In this document: one piece after another, positions 3 to 19,801 of the stretch | How the letters are laid out: every line of letters begins with the position of its first letter | How positions within the stretch are numbered: position 1 is the stretch's first letter | Origin: Seison nebaliae | Taxonomy: Eukaryota | Length of the DNA stretch: 20,000 nucleotides | Direction: 5' to 3' | Assembly (NCBI GenBank): GCA_023231475.1 | Contig: JALJEE010000958.1 | Coordinates: 48,602-68,601 of the forward strand | Made by a program: the position numbers and the translations under genes | Notes under the pieces: model-generated | What the model saw: the letters and a program-made list of their open reading frames with translations, nothing else | Told to the model about the DNA's origin: nothing | The model's database searches: none

Positions 3-3000
3 GAGAACTTGATTGATCGGATGCATCAGATGGCTGATTTGGTCAATTTGGAGAATACTTGTTTTTGTGACACTTTCCAAGTTCATCCGACTACTGTTCA
101 TGATGAACATTTAACAGAATCATTAATCGATGGTTCAATGAAGAGACGAATGTTTTATTTCGATGACAAGAAGAAAAATGATAGAAGGAAAATGGATTAT
201 TCAAAAATTATCAATAAATATTTCTCGAAAAATAATCAATCGACAGATGAGAAGATTGAGTTGAAGATAATGGAATTGACTGAATCTGAATTGAAATATG
301 AGGAAGATGTTAGAAAAGAATTTCAATTAAATCAATGTCCAATTGTCAATTCAGAATTCCGTTCAACTTCCGCTATTTTATCAATTCCCAAGATTCATTT
401 AAATAAAAAAGATTTCGATTGGGAGAAAGGAAACTTCCAAAAATTATTAAGTGAAAGATTCGGATCATTGATCGCTGAATATGGAGCAGTGTCGTTCACT
501 TTTAATGATTATCATCCGCCTATGATGTTAAATGAGAAAGATGTGAATATTTCAGTACGTCAACAAAATCTCCCGTTGTTAGAACCGAGAAGACGATTGA
601 ATATTATTTTCATGAATGAATTGTTAATGTTTCGAAAGTTTCAAGGATTACCATTCAATATAGAAAGTTTTGAAAAGATCAATAATCATCAAGTCGATTA
701 TTATTTATTATATCGATTAGTTGGAGAAGTGTTTGAAGAAGATGAATTGAAAAGTGAATATTTTTCAGCAAGTCATCTTCATCCATTGGATGAAATGGAA
801 ATAATGAAATGGTTCCGTATTTTCCTTCTCATGCGATTGACGAATGAGCGAATGATTTTATCATTTTCAAAAGAAGAACAATTATTTGATCCACCACAAG
901 GACGGAAAAAAGTATTGTTGAGAGAACAGAAACAAGCGAAAAAGAAGTTTTATGAAAAAATGATGAAATTAACACATCAACTTCGTTACAATTATTTTTC
1001 AGTTCTTCATCCCTTTCTAATTTTCCGTCAACATTATCATATTGGTATTGGTGAATGGACGAGAGATTTGTATTTGGAGAAGATTGGTCAATTCGATTGT
1101 TTAGAAGGAGATGATGGTGAGAGTGGGGAAGCGTCTCGAATGTATAAAGAATTGAAGATGAAAAATCGGAAAATTGAAGATGAAATTAATTTATCGAAAA
1201 TTCATTTTAAAAATTTAATTGAAGAACATAATAAGATGTATGAGGAAGAGAATGATGTGAAAATGATCGAGAATTATGATGTTATTTGTGCGAAATGTAA
1301 AATGAATGATAATGAAGAGAATTTATTATTGTGTAAGAATAATGGATATCATGCATTCCATACATATTGTCTACCAGTAACTTATCGTTTTAGTAATTTA
1401 CCAGATGAATGGTTCTGTTGGGATTGTACAGCGAAACAATTATCCAATTATCTCCCACAACCATACGGATTCCATCATTTTAAAGATCAACAATCATTTC
1501 ATCAATTCTATTCAGCAGCTGTCATTTATGAGAAGAATGTGTTGGAGGAATTGAATGAGAATAAAAAGAAGAAATATGAAGACAATCCAATATCGAATAA
1601 ATTTAAACAAATTACTCCTCATGCATATTATACATGGACGAAAATGGAAACGAATGATCAATTATTTGAATTTCAAAATAAAGAAAATAATATTTATAAA
1701 GATGGAAAAGAGAAATTCGTGATCGATTGGAGAATGACTGTTAATTCTTTCCGTTCAAACAAAGACGGAAATTTACGAGCGTCCACAATTCATCAATTTC
1801 TCACAAATGAGAATGATGAGAAAATGGATTCAATCACTGAACATTCCAATTCAAATCTCGATAATTTCGTTACAGCAGATGAAATTGAAGAAGAATATTG
1901 GAGACGATTCCAATCGAATAATGTCAAATTACCAACTCAAACCACATCATATGGAGCTGATGTTAATACGTCAGATATCGGTTCAGGATTTCCATCAAAA
2001 TATCATCAAATGGAAAAAAGTGAAATTCATGAAAATAATTCAGATTATGAAAAATATTTACATAGTTCTCTCAACATCAACAATATTGCCAATAATGATC
2101 AATCGGCATTCACATTCATTAAACCGTTAATAAACGGTGTTCGACTTCCCTGGTTATATTTCGGTCAATTATTCTCAACTTTCTGTTGGCATACTGAAGA
2201 TCATTTTACTTATTCCATCAATTATCATCATTATGGCGCTCCGAAAATCTGGTATGTTATTCCCTCATTTGCTGCTGATCGTTATGATGAATTTGTGCGG
2301 AATTATGTCCCAGAATTTTTCAAAATCTTTTCTGATTTTACTCATCATTTAACATCAACAATTCATCCAAATATTTTAATTCAACATGGAATTCCAGTAT
2401 ATCGAATTAATCAAATGAATGGCGATTTCGTCATAACTGCACCAAGAAGTTATCATTCAGGATATAATCAAGGATTCAACATCGCTGAAGCTGTCAATTT
2501 TGCTTATGCTGATTGGTTCTGGTGGAGTTTGTTCTCTTCTAGATATTATATAAAAGAATGTCATTCAAATATCTTTTCAATTAATGAATATATTTTATAT
2601 GCATTATCTCAATTTCATCAATTCTCAATAAATGATCGTTTAGAGAAAGTTGAGAATTTGTTAGGAAAAGAAAAAGAAAATTTGAATTATTTTCAAAAAT
2701 TTTCTTATGCAATCATTTCATGTAGTGAACGAGCAATTTATTATGAAAAACAATCTCTCAAAAATTTCTTTTCTTTTATTCTACAACATTTCGAAGTGAT
2801 GTATGATAAGAATGATGGATTTATTGAATGGAATTTGAATTCCATTAATTTCCAATCGACCGGTAATTCGAAAGAGAATCGTTCCAAACAAATTAATTTA
2901 TCAACAAAAAAATTTGATTTCTCTAAAGAAACCAATGACGATCGACGTACATGTTTGAATTGTAATCATACATGTTATTTTAATGCTATTACTTGTTCAT

Positions 3001-6000
3001 CATTCAAATGTTCTTCATGTTCATCTGATATTGGATGTCGTTTATTCTGTTTACAATGTTACAAATATGCCATTGATCATTGTCAATATTATCAGGAGAA
3101 TACTTTCTCATCAATCGATTTAATTCTTTATCATCAATATAATCATTTGGATTTCCAAGAGATTAATACACAAATTTCACAAATTCAAAAGAAACGAGAA
3201 GAATTGAAATATATAGAAAATAATATAAATATCTGTCAATATAATCAATTGGATCTATTAGATTGGATTAAAAAATCGAGTAAAAATAATAAAGAGAATT
3301 ATGAAAAGATTGTTCATTCTGTTAATCGTTTAAGTGAAATGAGAGAATTATTCTTCAAATATCTCAATAATTCAACAACAGAAATTGTTCATAAACAATT
3401 TTATTATTATCATCCTCAACACTCCAAATTAGAGATATCGAATCAATTCAAATATTCATTACAATCAATTCTTCTTTATCGATTTAATGAAATTGAAAAT
3501 ATTTATCTCGCTTTTCGTTCATCCTCCATCGATGATGTTGGATTTTGTAAACAGGAATTATGTTTCGTTCAATTAAATGAGATGGATGAATGGAAATTGA
3601 ATGGAAATGAAATCATCATAATGAATGCATCTTATTTTAATACATCAACCACTTGGTATAGTGTTCAATTGATTATGAAGGAGTTATGGAAATTGGGAAA
3701 GAATGAATATGAAGATATTCCATATAATTCATTCGAATTATGTGACGATATCCGTCAGAAATATTTCAATGGATTCGCCGCCATCTTAATCGAACAACAA
3801 TTCCAATTAGATTTCACCGAATGGTTAAGGACGAATATTCGATATAATTTTTCTTTAGGGAAATTATTTACACAAATCATTTATCGATTAACTGAAAATC
3901 GAAATTTTGATAAAATAAACAAAGTCAATTATCTCCAACGAATTTTAGAGAAATATTTCAATGTGAAATTTGGAGTTAAAATGAATAAATTCTCTTTCCA
4001 TCTCATAAAACAACATTTTAAATGGCGAAGTAGAAAACATCGAAAAATCGTTCTGGACGATATCGAATATTATCTAAATAATGCAATGACATCATTGATG
4101 ACTAATTGTGATTTAATTCCGTTGATAACGGTAATTCATGAAATTTTGAGAGAAAAATATAAAAAAGTTGAAGAATTAAATAATCAGTTTGATGAGTCGA
4201 TTTTACCATCAAAATTGAATAAAATTGTTGATGAATCAATAAAGAAACATGAAAATGGTAAATATTTCCATCCGATTAATGTTGAAGATTTGCCTTCATT
4301 CTCTTCCAATTATTCGATGAAAGATGATGAAGAAAAAATGGAAATGAATTTTATTGGAAATCATCTACATCAATTAGAAGATATTGAAGAACAAATGATG
4401 ATTATTGAGAAGATTTTCTTTTCTAATCCTGATCAAGCATTTGAAGATGTTTCAATTATTTTCTCAGATTATCGTTCGAAATGTGAAAGGATTTTATTAA
4501 TTTATTTATATCTCACATTAATTCGAAATGTTCATGTACAATTAGATTCATTCGATCGAGAGATACATTTGAAAGAATTAGATTTTGTGAAATATTATCG
4601 AATCTATTTTGAGACGATTCAATTCTTATGTGAGAAACATGACGTGTGGAAATGTTGGAAGAATTCGACAATCTATTTCCTATTGAAAGAGAAAGAAGAA
4701 GAATTTAAGAAAGAGAATGAAGGAATTCCACATCCAAATTATCAATCATATATTCTACGTCATTATTTCGCACGATCACTCAATTTCAAATCTTATCGAT
4801 ATATGATTTATTCTCATTTGAAAGAATTGGATATCGGTCCCGCTCATGACGATATGATGGAAGGAGATCATTTACATGGTTTATGTTCTGTCCTTTATAA
4901 TTCCCATCTTTCCTGTCAAGAATATCATGATGTTCATTTGAAAAAATTTATCGCTTTATTGACCGATCCATATGAGGATTATGATAGAAATAATAATCGA
5001 TTATTATATTTAATCAATTCAATTTTTGGTGATGGAACTTCGAGTAAATTGAAGGAATTCAAAGAGAAATTCTTCGTACATAATTCAACATGTTCATCTG
5101 AAAAGAATTTGTTTACTAATTCTTATTGGTCAGTGACAACGCAAATTTTCATGTATCTCATCGCAATTTTATTACGAGAAGATAACGAAAGAATTTTAGA
5201 GAAATTATCAAGTAATGGCAATTGTGATGGATTATCATTTATTTTATATTTGAAAAAGAACGAGAAAAATGAACCATCAATTTTCTCCCAATTACCGTCA
5301 ATTGTTGAAGATTCATTTCATTTCCTTTTAGATCGTTTAACGAAATCGATGGCGTCACTTCTTTCCATTGCTCTTCATTCCTTCTCTTCTCTAACAACAA
5401 TTCAATCTTATATTTGTAAAGAATTATCAAAGACACCGATAACTATGTTGAATTTGAAAGATTTGACAGAGGATCGTGAAAAACAATGGAGAAATATTCA
5501 TACGTCAATCAGTAATATGTTGAAAGGTACTCGATCACTTTTACCCCCATGGAATGAGAATAATTCGGAGAATTTCTTATGTCATAAATTATTATATCTC
5601 CATCCAATTATCGATAGTTATTCGATGGCACAATTATCATTAAATAGATTTTATGGATGGAAATCCAGTTATTCGGTTGATTTATTTTATAAAAAAATTG
5701 AAGAAAATCCTGAAATTAAACATAAGAATGTGTCGAAGAAATCAGGGTCGACATCTAAAACGAAATTTGATGAAGGACGAGAATATTGTTTCGCTGACAA
5801 TCCAAGTAATAAACAACATGAATCATTCTTTGCTCTTCATTTCCCGGAAGAATATGATCAAATTCATCAGAAGAATATGGAGAAAGCGAAAGGCTCTTGT
5901 CCTTCTAAACGGCCACTCGCCCAATATGCATTATCAGCTACAGTATCGGAATTAGTGACTAAATGGTGCAAGAATTATATACGACAACCGTCAGAATATA

Positions 6001-6374
6001 TTACAATCGACATCGACCAAAAACCAGACACTTCATCATTCACAACAGAAATTGAGGAGTCGGAGGACAAATCGAATGAATTGGTTTGGACTCCTTCTAC
6101 AGAGATGAAACCGGACAAACCAAATTTCAGTATCATTAAATGGACATCATCATGCCCCGTCAAAGGAGAATCGGAGAATGACGAAGAGAAAAAAGAAAAG
6201 AATAATCCAAATATTATGTCCAAATGTGAGAATGGACAAAATATGTCCATCAAATTAATTGTCTTATCGGACATAGAGAAATTGGGAGATTCGAACAGAC
6301 AACAATTAGACAACGACCAACATGAGATAAAAACAGAATTTGTTACTCGATTCGTTAACTTATCTGATTTATAA
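3..6374 (+). CDS. KDM5: KDM5/JARID1-family H3K4 histone demethylase (frame open to the left edge, possibly 5'-partial; no intron needed)
   Basis: KDM5 domain order is readable in the translation: JmjN-like (IPKIHL..EYGAVSF..YHPP, ~384-520), ARID-like (~590-1015), PHD1 (CAKC..LLLC..HTYC..WFCWDC, ~1287-1427), JmjC (PWLYFGQLFSTFCWHTEDH..SINY..PKIWY; PRSYHSGYNQGFNIAEAVNF) with intact H-x-E...H iron ligands, and a C5HC2-type finger (~2952-3083). No stop lies upstream of position 9 in this frame; first in-window ATG at 21. Confidence 0.93.
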   Translation, partial: ENLIDRMHQMADLVNLENTCFCDTFQVHPTTVHDEHLTESLIDGSMKRRMFYFDDKKKNDRRKMDYSKIINKYFSKNNQSTDEKIELKIMELTESELKYEEDVRKEFQLNQCPIVNSEFRSTSAILSIPKIHLNKKDFDWEKGNFQKLLSERFGSLIAEYGAVSFTFNDYHPPMMLNEKDVNISVRQQNLPLLEPRRRLNIIFMNELLMFRKFQGLPFNIESFEKINNHQVDYYLLYRLVGEVFEEDELKSEYFSASHLHPLDEMEIMKWFRIFLLMRLTNERMILSFSKEEQLFDPPQGRKKVLLREQKQAKKKFYEKMMKLTHQLRYNYFSVLHPFLIFRQHYHIGIGEWTRDLYLEKIGQFDCLEGDDGESGEASRMYKELKMKNRKIEDEINLSKIHFKNLIEEHNKMYEEENDVKMIENYDVICAKCKMNDNEENLLLCKNNGYHAFHTYCLPVTYRFSNLPDEWFCWDCTAKQLSNYLPQPYGFHHFKDQQSFHQFYSAAVIYEKNVLEELNENKKKKYEDNPISNKFKQITPHAYYTWTKMETNDQLFEFQNKENNIYKDGKEKFVIDWRMTVNSFRSNKDGNLRASTIHQFLTNENDEKMDSITEHSNSNLDNFVTADEIEEEYWRRFQSNNVKLPTQTTSYGADVNTSDIGSGFPSKYHQMEKSEIHENNSDYEKYLHSSLNINNIANNDQSAFTFIKPLINGVRLPWLYFGQLFSTFCWHTEDHFTYSINYHHYGAPKIWYVIPSFAADRYDEFVRNYVPEFFKIFSDFTHHLTSTIHPNILIQHGIPVYRINQMNGDFVITAPRSYHSGYNQGFNIAEAVNFAYADWFWWSLFSSRYYIKECHSNIFSINEYILYALSQFHQFSINDRLEKVENLLGKEKENLNYFQKFSYAIISCSERAIYYEKQSLKNFFSFILQHFEVMYDKNDGFIEWNLNSINFQSTGNSKENRSKQINLSTKKFDFSKETNDDRRTCLNCNHTCYFNAITCSSFKCSSCSSDIGCRLFCLQCYKYAIDHCQYYQENTFSSIDLILYHQYNHLDFQEINTQISQIQKKREELKYIENNINICQYNQLDLLDWIKKSSKNNKENYEKIVHSVNRLSEMRELFFKYLNNSTTEIVHKQFYYYHPQHSKLEISNQFKYSLQSILLYRFNEIENIYLAFRSSSIDDVGFCKQELCFVQLNEMDEWKLNGNEIIIMNASYFNTSTTWYSVQLIMKELWKLGKNEYEDIPYNSFELCDDIRQKYFNGFAAILIEQQFQLDFTEWLRTNIRYNFSLGKLFTQIIYRLTENRNFDKINKVNYLQRILEKYFNVKFGVKMNKFSFHLIKQHFKWRSRKHRKIVLDDIEYYLNNAMTSLMTNCDLIPLITVIHEILREKYKKVEELNNQFDESILPSKLNKIVDESIKKHENGKYFHPINVEDLPSFSSNYSMKDDEEKMEMNFIGNHLHQLEDIEEQMMIIEKIFFSNPDQAFEDVSIIFSDYRSKCERILLIYLYLTLIRNVHVQLDSFDREIHLKELDFVKYYRIYFETIQFLCEKHDVWKCWKNSTIYFLLKEKEEEFKKENEGIPHPNYQSYILRHYFARSLNFKSYRYMIYSHLKELDIGPAHDDMMEGDHLHGLCSVLYNSHLSCQEYHDVHLKKFIALLTDPYEDYDRNNNRLLYLINSIFGDGTSSKLKEFKEKFFVHNSTCSSEKNLFTNSYWSVTTQIFMYLIAILLREDNERILEKLSSNGNCDGLSFILYLKKNEKNEPSIFSQLPSIVEDSFHFLLDRLTKSMASLLSIALHSFSSLTTIQSYICKELSKTPITMLNLKDLTEDREKQWRNIHTSISNMLKGTRSLLPPWNENNSENFLCHKLLYLHPIIDSYSMAQLSLNRFYGWKSSYSVDLFYKKIEENPEIKHKNVSKKSGSTSKTKFDEGREYCFADNPSNKQHESFFALHFPEEYDQIHQKNMEKAKGSCPSKRPLAQYALSATVSELVTKWCKNYIRQPSEYITIDIDQKPDTSSFTTEIEESEDKSNELVWTPSTEMKPDKPNFSIIKWTSSCPVKGESENDEEKKEKNNPNIMSKCENGQNMSIKLIVLSDIEKLGDSNRQQLDNDQHEIKTEFVTRFVNLSDL

Positions 6375-11087: not shown

Positions 11088-11508
11088 TTAGTAGTGTTTA
11101 CGTTGATGATAATTTCGACGATGGCGACAACGTAATGGAGGAAGTTCTGCATCGAAAAATACAGAATCATCATCTGTCGATATGCTAACGAATTGGTTTA
11201 TGGTATCTGATTGTGAGACGAATACCTCACTAGTAGGAATAGAAAGAGTAGTGGTTGACTGGTTCTCTTTATAGATCAAAGTGATAAAATACGAAGATGT
11301 AAGGAAAGTAGAAACTTGTCTTAGGTTTCCTTGTTCTTTTCGCTCGAGGATAAGAACGTTTTTTACGTTCTTTGTTAGATGAGAGAAAGAAGACTTTCAC
11401 TAATCGAACTGCAATGACTGAGAAGAGAATAGTAAATATGAAAACGGCCAAAGAATTTTGTCGGCACCAATAGGAAATATAAATAATGAAATTGTTTGGT
11501 ATGCGCAT
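11088..11508 (-). CDS. Small single-TM protein, 123 aa, 2 exons (11508-11316, 11266-11088), with a basic post-TM stretch and an FFAT-like motif
   Basis: Two adjacent minus-strand ORFs join in frame through a 49-nt phase-1 intron, 11315-11267 (GTTTCT...TAAAG). Product has a hydrophobic segment (LAVFIFTILFSVIAVRLVKVFFL), a K/R-rich tract and STDDDSVFFDAEL. No homolog recognised, so the model rests on frame logic and intron similarity to neighbouring genes. Confidence 0.6.
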
Positions 11509-11808
11509 TTTTCATCGCAATACGAAAATGGCCGTTAAAGAAAATTTCATTTCGAAGTTTTTATAAAAGCAAATTTTATTTATTGGAAAGAAGAGGAAGA
11601 TAATTAAGAAATTAAAGAAAAAAAAAATTTTTTTTCTGATTGATTTTTTTTGAAAGAAAAAAAATTGTTAAAAAATTAATATTTTATAATTAAATAACCG
11701 AATAAATCCTTCAAATATCACTACGAGTAAAATGATCATGCAATCATTATTAAATTCATATGAATTATTTTCAGTTCCCAATTCATCAATTTCCGAAGTT
11801 GAATTAAA

Positions 11809-12315
11809 TTACTTCTTCTCAACTAACGAATCCATCTGGTTCAAATAATAACGTCCGGTGTATAAGAACAAGAAAGCGGAGCCAGTGGCGATTCCTATTT
11901 TCACTGGACATCCTCCTCCACCTTTTATTGCTCGACCGGTTACTTTGCACGTGGCACTGGTAGCAGAACGAGCGGTAGCCCATGCCAACATGGAACCAAA
12001 TGTGAACATCGTGGAAGTGAAAAGAGACATCGTTAATGTTTTCCTGTTACATCCACATTTCCCGTCATTAATCGCTTTCATGTGTGGACGTCCGGCAATA
12101 TAAGCCATCAGACCAAGATTTGAACCGAATAGAAGTACATTGGCCATTGTGCCTCCATAAGAACCGAATAGACGGTCAAAGCTTGGTGGGCAGATAACGT
12201 GAATAGACAATGGAAAATAACAAGCCACTCCAACATACGGTGCACATTTCACACACATAGAAATCACCTTGCAAATCGGTTTAGGCATTGGACATTCTTT
12301 CTTCTCTTGAGACAT
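11809..12315 (-). CDS. Uncharacterised small multi-pass membrane protein, 168 aa, Cys-rich, intronless
   Basis: Clean ATG-to-TAA ORF that is clearly more GC-rich than its flanks, with about four hydrophobic segments and 10 Cys. The segments GRPHM, FGSMLAWA and YLNQMDS are reminiscent of an uncharacterised invertebrate membrane-protein family (recollection, not verified). Confidence 0.8.
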   Translation of the reverse strand: MSQEKKECPMPKPICKVISMCVKCAPYVGVACYFPLSIHVICPPSFDRLFGSYGGTMANVLLFGSNLGLMAYIAGRPHMKAINDGKCGCNRKTLTMSLFTSTMFTFGSMLAWATARSATSATCKVTGRAIKGGGGCPVKIGIATGSAFLFLYTGRYYLNQMDSLVEKK

Positions 12316-12819
12316 TGTTGTTGATCAAATGAAAATGAAATGAGAAAAACTATTGCAATATCCGCTTCTTTCAATTAATGATATATAAGCTAACATATGA
12401 TATTTTGTATCAGAGATTAGAAATAGAAGTTATCCAAATTCATTTCAGACAATCAAAGAAATCCTTCTTCGATTTTGTTCGATTCTAAATATTTAGCTAG
12501 ATAATCTCGAATCAAATTTAACGAATTTCATTTCAGACGAAAATTAAATAATTTAATTTGTTTGAAAATCTACAAAATAATTTTAAGAGTGACTATCATA
12601 TAACAAAGAGAAGGAGAATATGAGATATATTAATTTATCATAATAATGGTTGTCATGACCACGGGAGAGCATTTAATGAAAATATCACTTGTTTTACAAC
12701 ATAATTCTTAATAGGTCAATGACATGACGAATCAATCACATGCTGCGAGTCGATTGTGAAATGCAGGTTCATATTTTCTGTTAGATAAAATTATTAGTCA
12801 ATGATTCTATTCAATCGTT

Positions 12820-15444
12820 ATGATGTCCTTAAAGAACAGCTTAATACTTCTACTTTCTCTCCAATTAATACAAAAATCTCATTTGCAAAGTTTCGTCTCT
12901 ATGAATAAAGCATTTATTGAGTTGGAACATCTGTTGACTGATCTGAACATTGGAACTATGGTGTTTCCTGACCTACAACCAAAAAATAATGTTAAAACTC
13001 AAATTGTTGAATTGTCAACACATCAATATCGATTGGGTTTAGCAAATTTGGCATCGAAACTCAACATAAAAATTAGTATACTTCCCAGTGTTACGAATTA
13101 TTTGAAACCGGTACGATTACTCCAAGGAATCTATTTCGTATTAAATACATATTATGTCAGATATCCATCACCACACATTCGACATCGACAACGTCCGATA
13201 ATTGTCGTAGTGAACTCGAAAACATTAACTGAACTAAATCATTATATTCCATGTAGTTTCTTCATTATTCCACCAATAATTTTCCTAAATTTCGATAGGA
13301 CGAAAGTTTCAACGAAAAAATTTCCATTCATCGAAATTTTAGCGAGTCCTCTGGAACAAGTCAGTTTAACTATTCAAGTTCCCGATCAGTATAAACGGAT
13401 AACTTACAAAGAAGCTCGACATGATTTGAATAATTCATTACAAGCAGTCATCGATACTTTCATTCAAGGGAAAGTACTTATGTACAAATCATTACCAGAT
13501 AAAATATATCATCAAGAGATGTATAATTTTTATCGGAAACATTTAAATTTCTATAATATTCATAAATCTGAATGTGATTGTGTATTGAGGTCCAATTCTT
13601 GGTATCAATGTGTACAAGATCAAGTGAGAAGTTATCTTCCAATTTATTCTCCCAAACACCCACCACCTGGATACAACGGAAGAAATTTCGTCCGAGTCGC
13701 TATGAAAATCAGTCCACCAAATACCATTTATTTAAATGGACAAAATTTACAACTGCATACGAACAAATCCATTCTCATTACAAAGCAATTACTAAGGAAC
13801 ATTACAGGATATTATTGTGAAATTCTTAAAATGATTCTTTATGATTATGAGTTGGAGATTTTTTAAAATTATTTTAAATTAAATTATTGTTATTTTAACA
13901 AATACCTAAACTTTAACAGTTTTGAAGTGGTCATACAAAGTGATTCAGTTCCTTTTGGTAATTTGGATAAGAAGACCGGATCATTAAACGGAATAGTTGG
14001 TTTAGTGGAGAAAGAAGTTTGTATTTGGTGTACAATTTCTTTGTAGTAAATGAGAAATATTTGAAAGGAGTTCGATATTGCCATACCAATCAGTGCGACA
14101 ATGGAACGAAGTCATCATGTAAATTTCCTCGAATATCTTTCGTTCGATCCATTGGCAATGCTCTTCGTCGATCAAGTGGAACAGAAATTTACACTTCAAT
14201 CATTATTCTCGGTGTATGAAGGATTGACGGCAAACTTATGGTTCTTGTGGTTCATCTCATTAATAATCTTCTCCTTCGTTCTTTCGAAATTGAATGAGAT
14301 TGAACAGAATTTTAATGTCTATCGATTATATATTCAAATGAGAAGTGAACAAAATTATGTAGGAGAAGTAATCTCGTTTCGGAGAGTGTGTAAATACATG
14401 AAAATATTAGATGGGAGAATCAGACCCACATTCTGCAAAGATCTAAGTATCAAATACAATGTGAAGAATATTCCAGGAAAGCGAATTCTTTACAGAATAT
14501 CTCGAATGAGTCGTCTACCAAAATTACTTTCGTTTGGGAAAATTTTTCTTTATTCTATCGCTAAATTTACTGGAGCAAGTTTAGATCTGTTTTCAATTTC
14601 GTCTTATCACTTGTTCTTATATAAATATAGATTATGGAATTGATACAAAATATTTTTTATCCCGATTCATTATGTTGCTTTGGTGGAGTTTGTGCACAGT
14701 GGTACTCATCTGTTTCACTGCCAATACTGCTGCACATGCTACTGTTAAGGATAAAACTGTCATTTTAAAATCATTCGCTGAATTAGCAGAAAGAAGTGAT
14801 TTAGTCCCAATGATGTTCAACCAAAGTAGTACTCATACAATATTTAAAGTTTATCTTCCATCTTATCTATTATATAATTTGTAAATTTCACAATCTGATA
14901 TTATGTAAAAAAAAAGTTTTCTAAAGAATATCCTTATCCAGAAGTTTTAGCAAAAGCAAAATTAATTTCAAATTATGAAGAAATGATGTATAGAGTATTT
15001 TATGAGAATGGTGTTTTCATTTCAGCAATGGATAGTATCGTCTATATCGCTAACACTTATTGCGGATTGAAACATTTATCAATCAAGAGTGGATATCTTG
15101 GTCAAGGCATGGCGATACCATTCGATTTTCTTCATTCAAATGTATTATCTGCTCGGTTTCCCTTCAATTCATTTTATTAATTAAAAATTCAAATTTTTAA
15201 AATTTAATCAAGAATATTAAAACTATCAGAAAGTGGTGTGGCATCAAGATTTCGACAACAATTTTGGCAGAAGAAATCCGCTTGTAAGAGGTTATTCCCG
15301 ACAAAAGATTACATCATCTCGAACACAGACAATTTTTTCCGGAACAATATCGGATATTTCATTTCTATTATAATCGGTCTCATCATTTGTCTCATTATTT
15401 TGGTAATAGAACTGTTTTATTTTAAATTTAAGAATAAACATTGA
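12820..15444 (+). CDS. Divergent ionotropic glutamate receptor / IR-like ligand-gated channel, ~775 aa, 6 exons (12820-13850, 13920-14016, 14068-14578, 14631-14848, 14917-15155, 15213-15444)
   Basis: The spliced product has a signal peptide, S1 (ITGYYCEIL..FG..GSLNGIVGLV..EFDIAIPISATMERSHHVNF), M1 (NLWFLWFISLIIFSFVL), M2, M3 (SRFIMLLWW..CFTANTAAHAT), S2 (SFAELAE..SSTH..GQGMAIP..ILKLSESGV..FW..C) and M4 (NIGYFISIIIGLIICLIILVIE). Five introns (13851-13919, 14017-14067, 14579-14630, 14849-14916, 15156-15212) restore a 2328-nt open frame. Confidence 0.88.
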
Positions 15445-15499
15445 ACAACGCTTTTTAAATTCGAAGTAAATAATAATCTGTAAATATAATTTTTAATCT

Positions 15500-17942
15500 T
15501 TAATTTATCATAATCTTCTCTCGTAATTTAGCACGACCGCCTTTGTGCAATTCGTAATATCGTGCTAGATCTTTCCGCGTGATAATTCCAACAACTCGAT
15601 AACTTCCATCCACAACGATTAGATGTCTGAGTCCCATTCCTCGGAATAATTGGAAGATTCGTGGTAACATTGTCCGATAACTAATTGAGAATGGTGAACG
15701 ATCAATATATGGAGTAAGATCTATTCGATCATTATTCAAATTGAGTATCTTTTCTCTAACATTCTCAATTGATGGATATCGAGGATAATAAAGGAGGAAA
15801 TCGGTTAATGTCAATGAATTCGGTTGATTCGCTAAAATGATTGCAATTAATTGATGTCTTAAAATAATCCCATAAAGTACTTTATTGTTGTTGTTATTCT
15901 TATTTTTTATATCGATCTCATGATCGTGTTTGATTCCACTGTGACTTTTATTGGAAAAGACTTTGGGATGAGAAGAAGATACGGAAACGATAGGAAATGC
16001 TGACGATGTTGTATTTAATAGAACATTGAGAATATCATGTCGATAAACAATAATATTAAACATATTGACTGGATGAGTCATGACTTCCATTGCCGATATG
16101 GTTTTGGTAGATGATAACGGTTCCCAATCAAGAAATGGTACTGAAGTCAAATCGATATGCATATCGAATATTCCTTCATTGAATATGTCACCGAAAAATT
16201 TCGCAGTTGTCAAACAAATGATTAGAGGTAAATTTAATGATATTTCACCAGTCGCTTCCATAATGATGACGGCGAGAGATAATGTCATTCGAACATTACC
16301 AGCTAATTGTGCAGCAGCACCCATTAATGCATAAACACTAATATTAGCTTGATATCCGAATATATGATATAAAGACAATCCAAATGCACGTCCCCAAGTG
16401 GCACCACAAAGAATTGACGGAATGAATAATCCACTCGGTACGTGACAACCATAAGTGGTCGTTGCTAACAAGAAATAGATGAGAGCGAAAACGATTAATG
16501 TTGTCAAATGGAATGTTTCCGATTGATCGTGTAAAATACTTTTCACACTTTCCTCCCACGTTTGCATCCAAAGTAATGCCATCGAACTCATTTCTCCATC
16601 CATGCATCGAATCTGCACAGGATGTTTAATATCATCCAAACCAAATGGACGACAATCATTCCATAGAACGGTGAGAACTAATGGAATTAATGATGAGACG
16701 ATTGCTAGAACGATACATTCGATTAATCTTGAAAATTTCTCTTTTATATATTTTTGACGGAAGATTGTCAGATGTTTATTTATCGCATTAAAAATAACAC
16801 CTTTAAATTAATCAAATTATAAATAGATTGAAATTGGAAAATTAACGAACCTAACGCTCCACCAATAATCCCGATAGCGAAAAAAGCAAATATATCAATT
16901 CCATTGTAATGTGGATCGAGAAACTTGCCAAAACTTAATAATCCTGGATTGGAAAAATCACCAAATTTACTACTCACTCCACTCAACACGAGATTGAGTG
17001 TGAAAGTGGAAAATAATGAAGAAAGAAACTTTAAAAAAAAAATAAATTTAACATAAAAATAAGAAAAATTATAATGAAACAATTTCCCAAGTTAACGATT
17101 GATTCCAAAAACTGGCACCTTCTTCTAAGCTAAACAAGACACCTCCAATTGGTGCACCGAAAGCGGCAGCTACACCAGCAGCCGCTCCAGCTGAAACGAA
17201 ATCTCTTTTATCTTTATCGTTTCTGAATGAATGGAATAGACCACAATCGAATTTAAGTGAAGAACTCATTCCTTGTGTTAGACCAGCTCCAATGACTGAA
17301 CCGGAATGTATCATCGGTCCTTCTTTTCCCACAGCTAATCCACCTGCCACACTGAAACAAACACCGAATACTTTAGCGATTAATGTACTTAATCGAACGA
17401 CTCTTGGCATTTTCACGCCATTCAGATAACATTTAATTTCCGGTATACCGGAACCTTTTGCTGCCGGTTCCCAATAAGCGACGAGAATTCCAGAAATTAA
17501 TACAAATGATACACTGATCAATACCCACATGAATGCACTATGATATGTACAAGAATGGAAGACGCAATGATTTAAACCTTTATCAAAATTACATTCATAT
17601 AAAAATATTTTATTTGAATAATAATTGAAAAACTTTTTTGTATAAACGAATATTTAATTTCCGCCAATTTATTCACCAACAAACCAATAATCACTCCGAT
17701 TAAACCGGTAAGAATTCCGATCAATAACATCAAAACCCATTTCATAAAATATTTATAACGATTATTCTTTTTGGATTAGCAATACAATTGAGATGAAATG
17801 AAAGAAGTTATGAAACTGCTAATGATTTATTTTTTATTTCTTCCACTAACTGCAATTCATTATTAACTTCAACATAATCCAGACCCTCGAATTTCGACGA
17901 GATAAGATGCGATCCATGAATATTCAACGGAACGACTTTCAT
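15500..17942 (-). CDS. CLCN7: ClC-7-like H+/Cl- exchanger with C-terminal CBS domains, ~744 aa, 5 exons (17942-17817, 17766-17634, 17577-17081, 17028-16851, 16800-15500)
   Basis: Motifs [77 protein letters not shown] and CBS2 [19 protein letters not shown]. Four introns (17816-17767, 17633-17578, 17080-17029, 16850-16801) give a 2235-nt open frame. The start at 17942 is tentative, since an upstream exon is possible. Confidence 0.92.
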
Positions 17943-18480
17943 TCTTTCATACACCACGAATCATAAACATTCAATTCATAAGATAAATAAAGGATTTGTT
18001 TATCTATTTCTCATTGTCGTGAACTAAAGGAAAATAAATCGAACTATTTGGATAGATCACTCATTAATTCAAAGTTGACTTGTCTGGCTACTCATTCAAA
18101 ATTGGCTATGTAATAAATCATAATATTGTTTCCTATTTAAATTAATTTCTTTCAAATTAATTAATGATTTTTATTCAATTTTTTCCAATAACTCAACAAA
18201 CAAATTTTCTTATTAATTTCCTGTTCATTTCTTAATTAATAACTAAAATATTACGAATAAATAATAAATAAAAAACAATCTCAACTATTATTTTCATCTT
18301 TAAAGTATTTTTTATTTATCGTAATTTTTTTTTTATGATGCACAACTATGAAGGAGAAAGTAGATGGGAAAAATTATAGAAAATGTTCGAAATAATGAAA
18401 GATAATTTGGAAAGATGTTGGACATTCATATTCATTAAGGCATTTGTATATAATTAATAAAATAAATTAAATATTTTATT

Positions 18481-19047
18481 CTAATAACATTCCGCCTCGT
18501 GAAACAATGAAGTTTTCAGTTCTTTTCCCGTCATACAATTAATTTCATAAAATTGACATTTGTCACACAATTCTTCGCAGTGTTCTTCGTAATTGTCATC
18601 AAGAATATCGAATTTTTTGAAATATTGTTTGATTGGTATCTGTGAATGGAATTTAGAATAAATATATGATGATGATGCAACTTGATCATAAGGAAAGACT
18701 GAGGTGCGGCATATTTTACATTTCTGTCCCCAATTACTCCAAGTGACGGTGGAGTTCCATCGGTGGTTGCACTTCGAACAGTTGAAGGCGCCAAATGCAC
18801 GAGATTTACCCTGATATTCCGTCAACGTGTTATTCAGATCTGTTACCATTTCTTCGTCATCTGAAATTAATTCTTCTCGTTGATATTCATTCTGAGCACC
18901 TAATTAATATAAAACTAATTTGTTCCTGAACAGTATTTATAATTTATAACCTATATATTTATAATTTGGTATTCCGAAACAATTCCATGTAGCTAATCGA
19001 CTGCTTAATGATTCAATGAATCTATGACCTATCCTTTTCGTCATCAT
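18481..19047 (-). CDS. ZCCHC24-like 3CxxC-type zinc-binding-domain protein, ~157 aa, 3 exons (19047-18951, 18899-18682, 18639-18481)
   Basis: LTEYQGKSRAFGAFNCSKCNHRWNS..W.N.GQKCKIC..VFPYDQ|IPI..EHCEELCDKC..C follows the C-terminal domain of ZCCHC24 (LTPYQG..R.FG.Y.C..C..W.S..W...Q.C..C...VYP..Q.PL...H...LC.KC). Introns 18950-18900 (GTTA..TAG, phase 1) and 18681-18640 (GTTG..CAG, phase 0, no stop). Confidence 0.8.
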
Positions 19048-19247
19048 TTAAAATTCTTGTAAATTTTCCTTCACTATATAGTCCTATATTCAATTGACTA
19101 ATTACCAAAATAAACAAAATTTTTTAAGATGTTGAATGTCGAATATTTATTTATCTAAACAGTTTATCTCTAACATTTATCTATAAGAAATAGTAATTTT
19201 GATTAAAGTGTAATATTCAAATAATATGTAATCAACTGAACATGGTA

Positions 19248-19334
19248 CTCGCGATAGCTCAGTTGGTAGAGCGGAGGACTGTAGAAATTGTATCAGAGAT
19301 CCTTAGGTCAGTGGTTCAAATCCGCTTCGCGAGA
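19248..19334 (+). tRNA. tRNA-Tyr (anticodon GTA) with a 14-nt intron (19285-19298)
   Basis: Acceptor stem CTCGCGA/TCGCGAG plus discriminator A; D arm GCTC-AGTTGGTA-GAGC; anticodon arm GAGGA-CTGTAG[intron]A-TCCTT with GTA at 19281-19283; T arm AGTGG-TTCAAAT-CCGCT. Mature length 73 nt, with the intron at the canonical 37/38 position. Confidence 0.97.
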
Positions 19335-19338
19335 TAAA

Positions 19339-19346
19339 TTTTATTT
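19339..19346 (+). terminator. Probable RNA polymerase III oligo-T terminator of the tRNA gene
   Basis: TTTTATTT starts 5 nt after the discriminator base. T-runs are common in this AT-rich DNA, so support is positional only. Confidence 0.5.
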
Positions 19347-19512
19347 ACTATAATTGTAATGTAGGTAAAGTTTATATTGGTTTTTAAGAAATTTTAGGGG
19401 AAATAACGTTTACGTGGCAACAATAGAAAGTAAATATCTATTTAATAGAATTAGCGTTAATGAAATTAATTAATCAATTAAATTTCCATTAAATGAATCT
19501 TCCAAGATGAAA

Positions 19513-19801
19513 TTAGGCCTTTCGGCATCCTTCACAGCATTCATCTTTCTTGTATTTTTTTTGTCCTGGAGGGCATTGAATTGGGGCACATTTTGGGACA
19601 CATGATATATCGTCGATTGTTTCACCACAAGTGCATTGTGAACACTTTGGAAGCATGTCAGCATATTTATCACAATTATCTGCTCGGCTATAAGCGATTG
19701 CTAATAAATCCAAATGAAACAATTATTATTAACATTAAAAAAATTTAAGAGTAACCGGTAATGAAAAGGAAAAGGAGAGTAATGAATTTAATTCCGAACA
19801 T
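19513..19801 (-). CDS. Small secreted single VWC (von Willebrand factor type C)-domain protein, 77 aa, 2 exons (19801-19756, 19700-19513)
   Basis: A 55-nt phase-1 intron, 19755-19701 (GTTACT...ATTAG), joins a signal peptide (MFGIKFITLLFLFITAIAYS) to a 10-Cys module, C-x9-C-x2-C-x-C-x8-C-x3-C-x4-C-x11-CC-x2-C, which contains the CxxCxC and CCxxC hallmarks of VWC. Confidence 0.82.

Follow-up and report, generated by a model that had tools for sequence, protein, structure and literature searches.

All 14 introns predicted in a 20,000-nucleotide (nt) stretch of the genome of Seison nebaliae, a seisonid rotifer that lives on crustaceans, open with GTT. Animal introns typically start with GTA or GTG. 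The stretch, hereafter the window (contig JALJEE010000958.1, positions 48,602 to 68,601; coordinates below count from its first letter), holds these introns in five genes on both strands. All are short (42–69 nt, median 51.5), AU-rich and bounded by GT and AG. The GTT pattern in the window is real and statistically solid, and it probably reflects a donor shift that extends across the genome.

The donor pattern

T occupies donor position +3 in 14 of 14 introns, and a purine in 0 of 14. Over both strands of the window, T follows GT at a frequency of 0.386 (1645 sites), and at 327 intergenic sites the frequency is 0.44; at a background of 0.45, the chance of finding 14 GTT donors in 14 is p=1.4e-5. 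Position +4 is mostly T (T 9, G 2, A 2, C 1), while half of the donors have C at +5 (C 7, G 3, A 2, T 2). The excess of C over a background of 0.15 gives p=0.002, a post hoc value that precedes correction for about 20 base-by-position choices. Position +6 is without preference. The last exon base is A in eight cases and G in four, and the frequency of A (8/14 against 0.23 expected) is itself unusual (p=0.006). Five of the 14 donors read GTTTC, and exactly one reads GTTTGT.

These introns have the character of U2-type introns, with GT...AG ends and a conserved reading frame that they interrupt; if retained, 12 of the 14 would break the frame or introduce stops. The U12-type donor consensus is GTATCC-type, and a test for such donors failed, A at +3 being found in 0 of 14. 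Nor do the donors conform to the typical animal form, which is GTRAG-like and pairs with canonical U1.

The first-pass annotation of this DNA had listed 13 introns, all with GTT donors and three of the 13 with G at +5, in five genes on both strands. All 13 were found at the expected places and the counts agree. That list left out a further GTT intron (14376-14423), and two features escaped it: the prevalence of C or G at donor position +5, and the loosened acceptor described below.

Placement of the junctions

When the GenBank proteins P0125, P0121, P0001 and P0124 were mapped exactly to the window with GT-AG and GC-AG introns allowed, each of the four had a single solution; together they gave 13 introns, namely 12 of the 13 listed earlier together with 14376-14423. 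Each junction was also subjected to a donor-option check, in which the rest of the gene model was fixed and any frame-keeping GT-AG intron of 35–100 nt within 45 nt was considered. Only one donor is possible for six of the 14, and for a seventh there is a choice of two, each of which is GTT. Homology decides in favor of the donors at 16850 and 17816 over GTG options, and alignment with GluA1 decides in favor of those at 14017 and 14849. Finally, a spliced aligner guided by homology alone was built from 25 ClC-7 proteins (of 120 listed), none of them from Seison, and had no preference at +3. It recovered three of the four ClC-7 junctions exactly; at the fourth (17816), it chose a GC donor 3 nt upstream. 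In total, 11 of the 14 GTT donors are independent of annotation, with 17816 counted among GT options only; for these 11, a hand calculation gives 0.44^11, or approximately 1e-4. Three introns (donors at 11315, 14376 and 18681) rest on annotation. It had been claimed earlier that most boundaries are fixed by protein homology; this is borne out for several junctions of ClC-7 and of the ionotropic glutamate receptor (iGluR)-like gene, but not for the ZCCHC24-like junctions, where the sole match is the Seison protein.

The iGluR/IR-like gene SNEBB_000495 (12901-15444, forward strand) contains six introns of the GenBank model. The spliced protein aligns with GluA1 without gaps across four junctions, those of introns 13851..13919 (69 nt, GTTGGA...CAG), 14017..14067 (51 nt, GTTTGT...AAG), 14579..14630 (52 nt, GTTTAG...TAG) and 15156..15212 (57 nt, GTTTCC...AAG). 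The second of these carries in-frame stops, and the other three have a sole feasible GT donor. At a fifth junction, that of 14849..14916 (68 nt, GTTTAT...AAG), the donor side is also gapless and corresponds to GluA1 STKEFFR, while the acceptor side shows a 6-residue gap. The remaining annotated intron, 14376..14423 (48 nt, GTTTCG...CAG, GC fraction 0.35), is uncertain and comes from the GenBank model only.

On the reverse strand, the ClC-7 gene SNEBB_000496 (15500-17942) has four introns in the GenBank model. Intron 16801..16850 (50 nt, GTTCGT...AAG) was also found by the homology aligner, with a score of 145 versus 122 for a GTG alternative. Intron 17029..17080 (52 nt, GTTTCA...AAG), likewise placed by the aligner, lies at profile column 271 in phase 0. 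Intron 17578..17633 (56 nt, GTTTTT...AAG) is supported by the model, the aligner and the donor-option check. For 17767..17816 (50 nt, GTTTCA...AAG), the GTT donor is the best GT option, and the GC donor 3 nt upstream scores marginally higher (102.8 vs 101.1). The exon at 15503-16807 matches SNEBB_000496 (744 amino acids, aa) at 100%. The aligner also called a GTC intron in this gene (15961-15899), which was dropped: it is in frame, falls in a region of variable inserts in homologues and is exon in the GenBank model.

The other three genes are also on the reverse strand. The 3CxxC zinc-finger gene SNEBB_000497 (18481-19044) has two annotated introns in the GenBank model. For 18900..18950 (51 nt, GTTATA...TAG), both feasible donors are GTT, and the upstream exon has no homology support. 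The second, 18640..18681 (42 nt, GTTGCA...CAG), is uncertain, as PF13695 prefers the unspliced protein (25.1 bits vs 15.4 spliced). Both this intron and 14376..14423 may be exon, since they are in frame and stop-free. The intron of SNEBB_000493 (gene 11088-11508, no family), 11267..11315 (49 nt, GTTTCT...AAG), matches P0125 exactly; other frame-keeping donors exist, and its position rests on annotation. The iGluR-like, zinc-finger and no-family genes all match their GenBank counterparts as numbered here. The last intron, 19701..19755 (55 nt, GTTACT...TAG), is the remaining one of the 13 listed earlier, placed here by the present analysis; the gene is small and VWC-like (19513-19801), and its product has a hydrophobic N-terminus. 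The intron has a sole feasible donor, and its acceptor possibly lies 18 or 21 nt further in.

Comparison with bdelloid-like ClC-7 genes

As a control, the same homology-only aligner was applied to three metagenome loci (L001–L003) matched by a ClC-7 fragment of Adineta steineri with 59–79% identity in the best segment; they are termed bdelloid-like here. It called 29 introns, among which the first of L002 lies at a contig edge and is uncertain. These resemble the Seison introns in being GT-AG introns of about 52 nt in AT-rich DNA, in including a minority of GTT donors and in having one position in common with Seison. They differ in being mostly GTA (A at +3 in 19, T in six), in having no C at +5 and in their pyrimidine-rich acceptors, which end in YAG in 26 of 29. 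Moreover, bdelloid-like GTT donors always have G at +5 (6/6), whereas GTA donors have it in 5 of 19 (L001:727-3173, L002:40-2097). The frequency of GTT in Seison (14/14) is clearly distinct from that in L001 (3/15, p=1e-5). The common position is ClC-7 column 271, phase 0, where L001 and L002 have GTA...TAG and Seison has GTTTCA...AAG. Because the position is common to these loci, this would be an old intron that changed its dialect, the direction of change being our inference.

Pairing with U1

Canonical U1 does not separate the Seison donors from random GT sites (duplex energies of -2.1 and -1.7 kcal/mol, p=0.17), while the 15 donors of L001 pair with it better than random GT sites do (-4.0, p=4e-4). 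In human GUUUG donors, C at +5 nearly abolishes use unless U1 has G4 (PMC4856993). Given the weak canonical duplex and the presence of GTTTC in 5 of 14 donors, standard U1 pairing does not appear to explain the Seison donors, as judged from the human data. This supports the conclusion that they are not read as the standard animal U1 reads donors, and to this extent the rewired donor recognition proposed in the first-pass annotation stands. A template of the Entamoeba type does distinguish the Seison donors from other GTT sites (5.54 vs 4.46, p=2e-4). No small nuclear RNA (snRNA) was found in the window by Rfam.

Acceptors and intron bodies

The acceptors are AAG in eight introns, CAG in three and TAG in three, with A at -4 in 10 of 14. 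Their pyrimidine fraction is 0.52, versus 0.73 and 0.72 in the controls (p=4e-4), and YAG ends 6 of 14 introns, versus 26 of 29 in the bdelloid-like set; the typical pyrimidine tract followed by YAG is thus not seen. AAG was considered as a positive acceptor motif and rejected, its frequency (8/14) being close to the background of 0.40–0.45 for A before AG. Because A precedes AG this often by chance, the rule at -3 appears to be lost rather than reversed.

The branch-point motif YTRAY occurs in eight of the 14 introns, versus 6.0 in shuffles (p=0.20), and no branch motif stood out in them; intron folding and pairing of intron ends likewise gave nothing in the 14. T makes up 0.51 of positions +7..+20, a richer content than the approximately 0.40 of the controls.

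Intron density and neighboring features

Seison looks intron-poor in the window, as judged from its four ClC-7 introns versus 15 called in L001, from the single-exon neighbors and from a stop-free frame of more than 6 kb. The neighbors recorded as single-exon products are an SLC25 carrier and a 168-aa open reading frame. The carrier (PF00153; 8528-10606, forward strand, 692 aa) has a long His/Arg-rich insertion between carrier repeats, with an uninterrupted frame on record. The 168-aa protein (11809-12315, reverse strand) is hydrophobic and cysteine-bearing and has no Pfam match. The stop-free frame (3-6374, forward strand, 2123 codons) is open at the window start and encodes PHD and JmjC domains; we take it to be KDM5-like. 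The Seison genome has been described as about 46 Mb in size, with 32% GC in strain B, compact genes and approximately 35% of metazoan BUSCOs missing (PMC8351084).

The frame of the iGluR-like gene is open upstream of its annotated start at 12901, and a signal-peptide-like MM plus hydrophobic run begins at 12820 (12820-12900, forward strand); the GenBank model may be truncated at its 5' end. The iGluR-like gene and the ClC-7 gene are convergent, with only 55 nt between their stop codons (15445-15499), so that their 3' ends probably overlap. A gene for tRNA-Tyr (anticodon GTA), interrupted by a short intron, lies at 19248-19334 on the forward strand (Rfam 59 bits; missed by ARAGORN). Relative to synonymous-codon shuffles, the coding sequences of the window are depleted of CTA, GTA, TAG and TAA and enriched in GAA, CGA and TCG. 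The depletion of GTA but not GTT in exons (0.68 and 0.96 of expected) seemed at first to speak against the donor pattern, but it was rejected as evidence on donors: CTA (0.65) and TAG (0.70) are equally depleted, which indicates a general avoidance of TpA, and GTA depletion is therefore uninformative.

Discussion

We tentatively favor the explanation that the donors of the major spliceosome have shifted genome-wide to GTT(T)(C/G) and are read by a U1 with A in place of the pseudouridine opposite +3. Such an A would pair only with U, so that the usual choice of two bases at +3 (A or G) would become a single fixed base; this, together with the fact that Entamoeba is the published case found of a fixed U at +3, is why an Entamoeba-like change in U1 is favored. 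It is known that G44 of U6 faces +3 and that unmethylated U6 favors U at +4 (PMC11732430). After hand-over, U+3 could face G44 as a wobble and U+4 could pair with unmethylated A43, in which case the ACAGAGA box of U6 need not change. Loss of METTL16/SNRNP27K is predicted. For +5, a speculative source of the C or G is a U1 that carries G opposite this position, beside the normal C of U6; C at +5 does not match normal U1 or normal U6, and it is here that the pattern is still unexplained. Introns would be defined across their length of about 50 nt; exons show no avoidance of GTT, so that intron definition must draw on length and composition as well. A less stringent U2AF would let the acceptor be read as a bare AG, perhaps together with a substitution in Prp8 at the position corresponding to yeast Q1594. 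The latter is prediction only, prompted by reports that this residue reads the pyrimidine at -3 (bioRxiv 212811) and that Q1594A relaxes the -3 rule (bioRxiv 2025.06.16.659908).

Several observations weigh against this explanation. The evidence comes from one window, five genes and gene-model junctions, and the 29 introns of the control set fall at just 16 different positions, all of them in a single gene. The homology-only aligner gave one GC and one GTC call in ClC-7 that are absent from the annotation. An Entamoeba-like U1 variant did not separate donors from decoys by duplex energy (-2.7 vs -1.95, p=0.15), and the exact GTTTGT, which makes up about 88% of Entamoeba donors, accounts for one of 14 in Seison. 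Exons contain GTT at 0.96 of the expected frequency and so show no depletion. Moreover, most lineages with shifted donors keep a normal U1, as in 69 of 69 yeasts, Thecamonas and Micromonas, and among 227 Saccharomycotina U1 candidates, although these are mostly shifts at +4.

The latter observation also favors a different account, which we consider possible but doubtful, in which a real, genome-wide shift left the snRNAs as they were or went with a U1 that is weak or has been lost. Donor choice would then depend on intron length and U-richness, on proteins of the TIA-1/U1C/LUC7 type, on pairing of U5 to A-rich exon ends and on an unmethylated U6, the ACAGA of which is able to pair with GUUU. 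The T-rich stretch at +7..+20 and the A at -1 in 8 of 14 are in line with this, as is the remark that GUUUGU can pair better with normal U6 (Roy and Bowser, bioRxiv 2022.06.08.495308). Also in its favor are the mikrocytids, in which only U2, U4 and U6 were identified (PMC10245619), and the absence from Seison of many BUSCO genes noted above (PMC8351084). However, reading by U6 alone would favor C at +3, opposite G44, and G at +5, whereas C+3 is seen in 0 of 14 and G+5 in 3 of 14; animals with eroded signals, such as myxozoans and Dicyema, keep GTa and show no switch (PMC13644364). We think it rather unlikely that the major spliceosome is recoded at both ends, with GUUUC/GUUUG read by snRNAs compensated at +3 and +5 and bare-AG acceptors recognized through altered U2AF/Prp8. 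Compensation at +5 would in that case mean either G4 in U1 or a change in the ACAGAGA box of U6, a position considered nearly immutable.

It is less likely still that GTT is common but not exclusive in Seison, as an exaggerated bias of the rotifer type, and that the window is a lucky or locally biased sample. The bdelloid-like loci already have GTT in 6 of 29 introns, a single window is not random, and a species-trained gene finder may reinforce a bias. Against this, the one-sided 95% lower bound from 14/14 is 0.81, if introns are independent, and the control GTT donors always have G at +5, a base lacking there in 11 of the 14 from Seison (p=0.002). There is little to recommend the view that a normal U1 pairs in a register shifted by +1 (GTT-RAG type), with T+3 acting as the usual T+2: human genes offer documented cases of such pairing (cited in PMC4856993) and the frequent A at -1 would suit it, but the RAG tail at +4..+6 occurs in 0 of 14 donors, and the shifted template does not distinguish them from GTT decoys (3.82 vs 3.72, p=0.31). 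Mis-called junctions, with transcripts using nearby GTA/GTG or GC donors, seem a very improbable source of the pattern. The junctions are predicted, the donors at 11315, 14376 and 18681 have non-GTT alternatives and no homology to decide between them, and the GC donor ties at 17816; yet for six introns only one GT donor is feasible, a seventh is GTT-only and four more are fixed by homology. Least probable of all, in our opinion, is that the introns arose by recent copying of a mobile element, introner-like and starting with GTT. Their uniform length and common start would fit, but their pairwise similarity is no different from that of shuffled controls (it averages 8.9 vs 8.6 and peaks at 17, while the 95th percentile after shuffling is 18), they have neither stable folding nor a consistent target duplication, and one ClC-7 intron position is common to Seison and the bdelloid-like loci.

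Among known systems, Entamoeba offers the closest match to the preferred explanation. Its donors are GUUUGU(U), its U1 has co-evolved to AACAAAC (also given as ACAAAC), and its U6 ACAGA is unchanged (Roy and Bowser, bioRxiv 10.1101/2022.06.08.495308). As in Seison, U is fixed at +3 and common at +4 (T+4 in 9 of 14 in Seison), and the introns are short and AU-rich, in an intron-poor genome of a host-associated organism. It was noted earlier that Entamoeba, unlike this window, conserves +5, and the figures agree: Entamoeba keeps G there (GUUUGN in 97–98%) and has a branch point at a near-fixed position, while Seison has G+5 in 3 of 14, C+5 in 7 of 14, a free +6 and no detectable branch motif. 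Thus, the Seison donors work like the Entamoeba dialect but fail membership on G+5. The switch from A to U at +4 that accompanies loss of METTL16/SNRNP27K resembles Seison in its T+4 and few introns, but in that switch A+3 and G+5 stay as they were and no snRNA is altered (PMC10581693, PMC11732430, PMC11347140). Myxozoans and Dicyema japonicum are, like Seison, reduced host-associated animals with bare-AG acceptors and little or no pyrimidine tract; their donors erode to GTa with the purine kept, whereas Seison switches to T, and myxobolid introns measure 22–27 nt versus about 50 nt in Seison (PMC13644364). Fritillaria borealis is also an animal with re-patterned splice signals, tied there to U2AF divergence and loss of U6 N6-methyladenosine, but it changes the terminal dinucleotides, whereas Seison keeps GT-AG and changes +3, +5 and -3 (bioRxiv 10.1101/2025.08.15.670264).

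GTT-only donors are apparently undescribed for an animal within the literature searched. No description of these donors, whether in work on Seison introns and splicing or on GTT donor sites in rotifers, was found in a search that had outside its scope the Seison annotation paper (doi 10.1007/s10750-023-05268-6), subscription journals, figures and bioRxiv supplements. In the accessible text of the Seison genome paper, the passages on introns and splice sites concern gene length and gene finding (PMC8351084); the accessible portions of the supplements of PMC8351084, PMC10125929 and PMC13161344 hold no intron sequences or splicing-factor names. A 2026 comparison gives agGTaagt for most of the animals that it covers and GTa for myxozoans and Dicyema, with Seison not mentioned in its text (PMC13644364).

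Positive cases of co-evolution between snRNAs and splice sites are few (Entamoeba, Mastigamoeba). Seison is well suited to this question: its genome is public, RNA-seq exists for two divergent strains (PMC8351084), and the donors of its close relatives are ordinary. GTT donors also matter for gene prediction in Seison nebaliae. In animals, donors retain the purine at +3 even when the signal has otherwise eroded (PMC13644364); if the pattern described here is true of the species, a fixed T at +3 with common C at +5 would represent a switch of the code rather than its decay.

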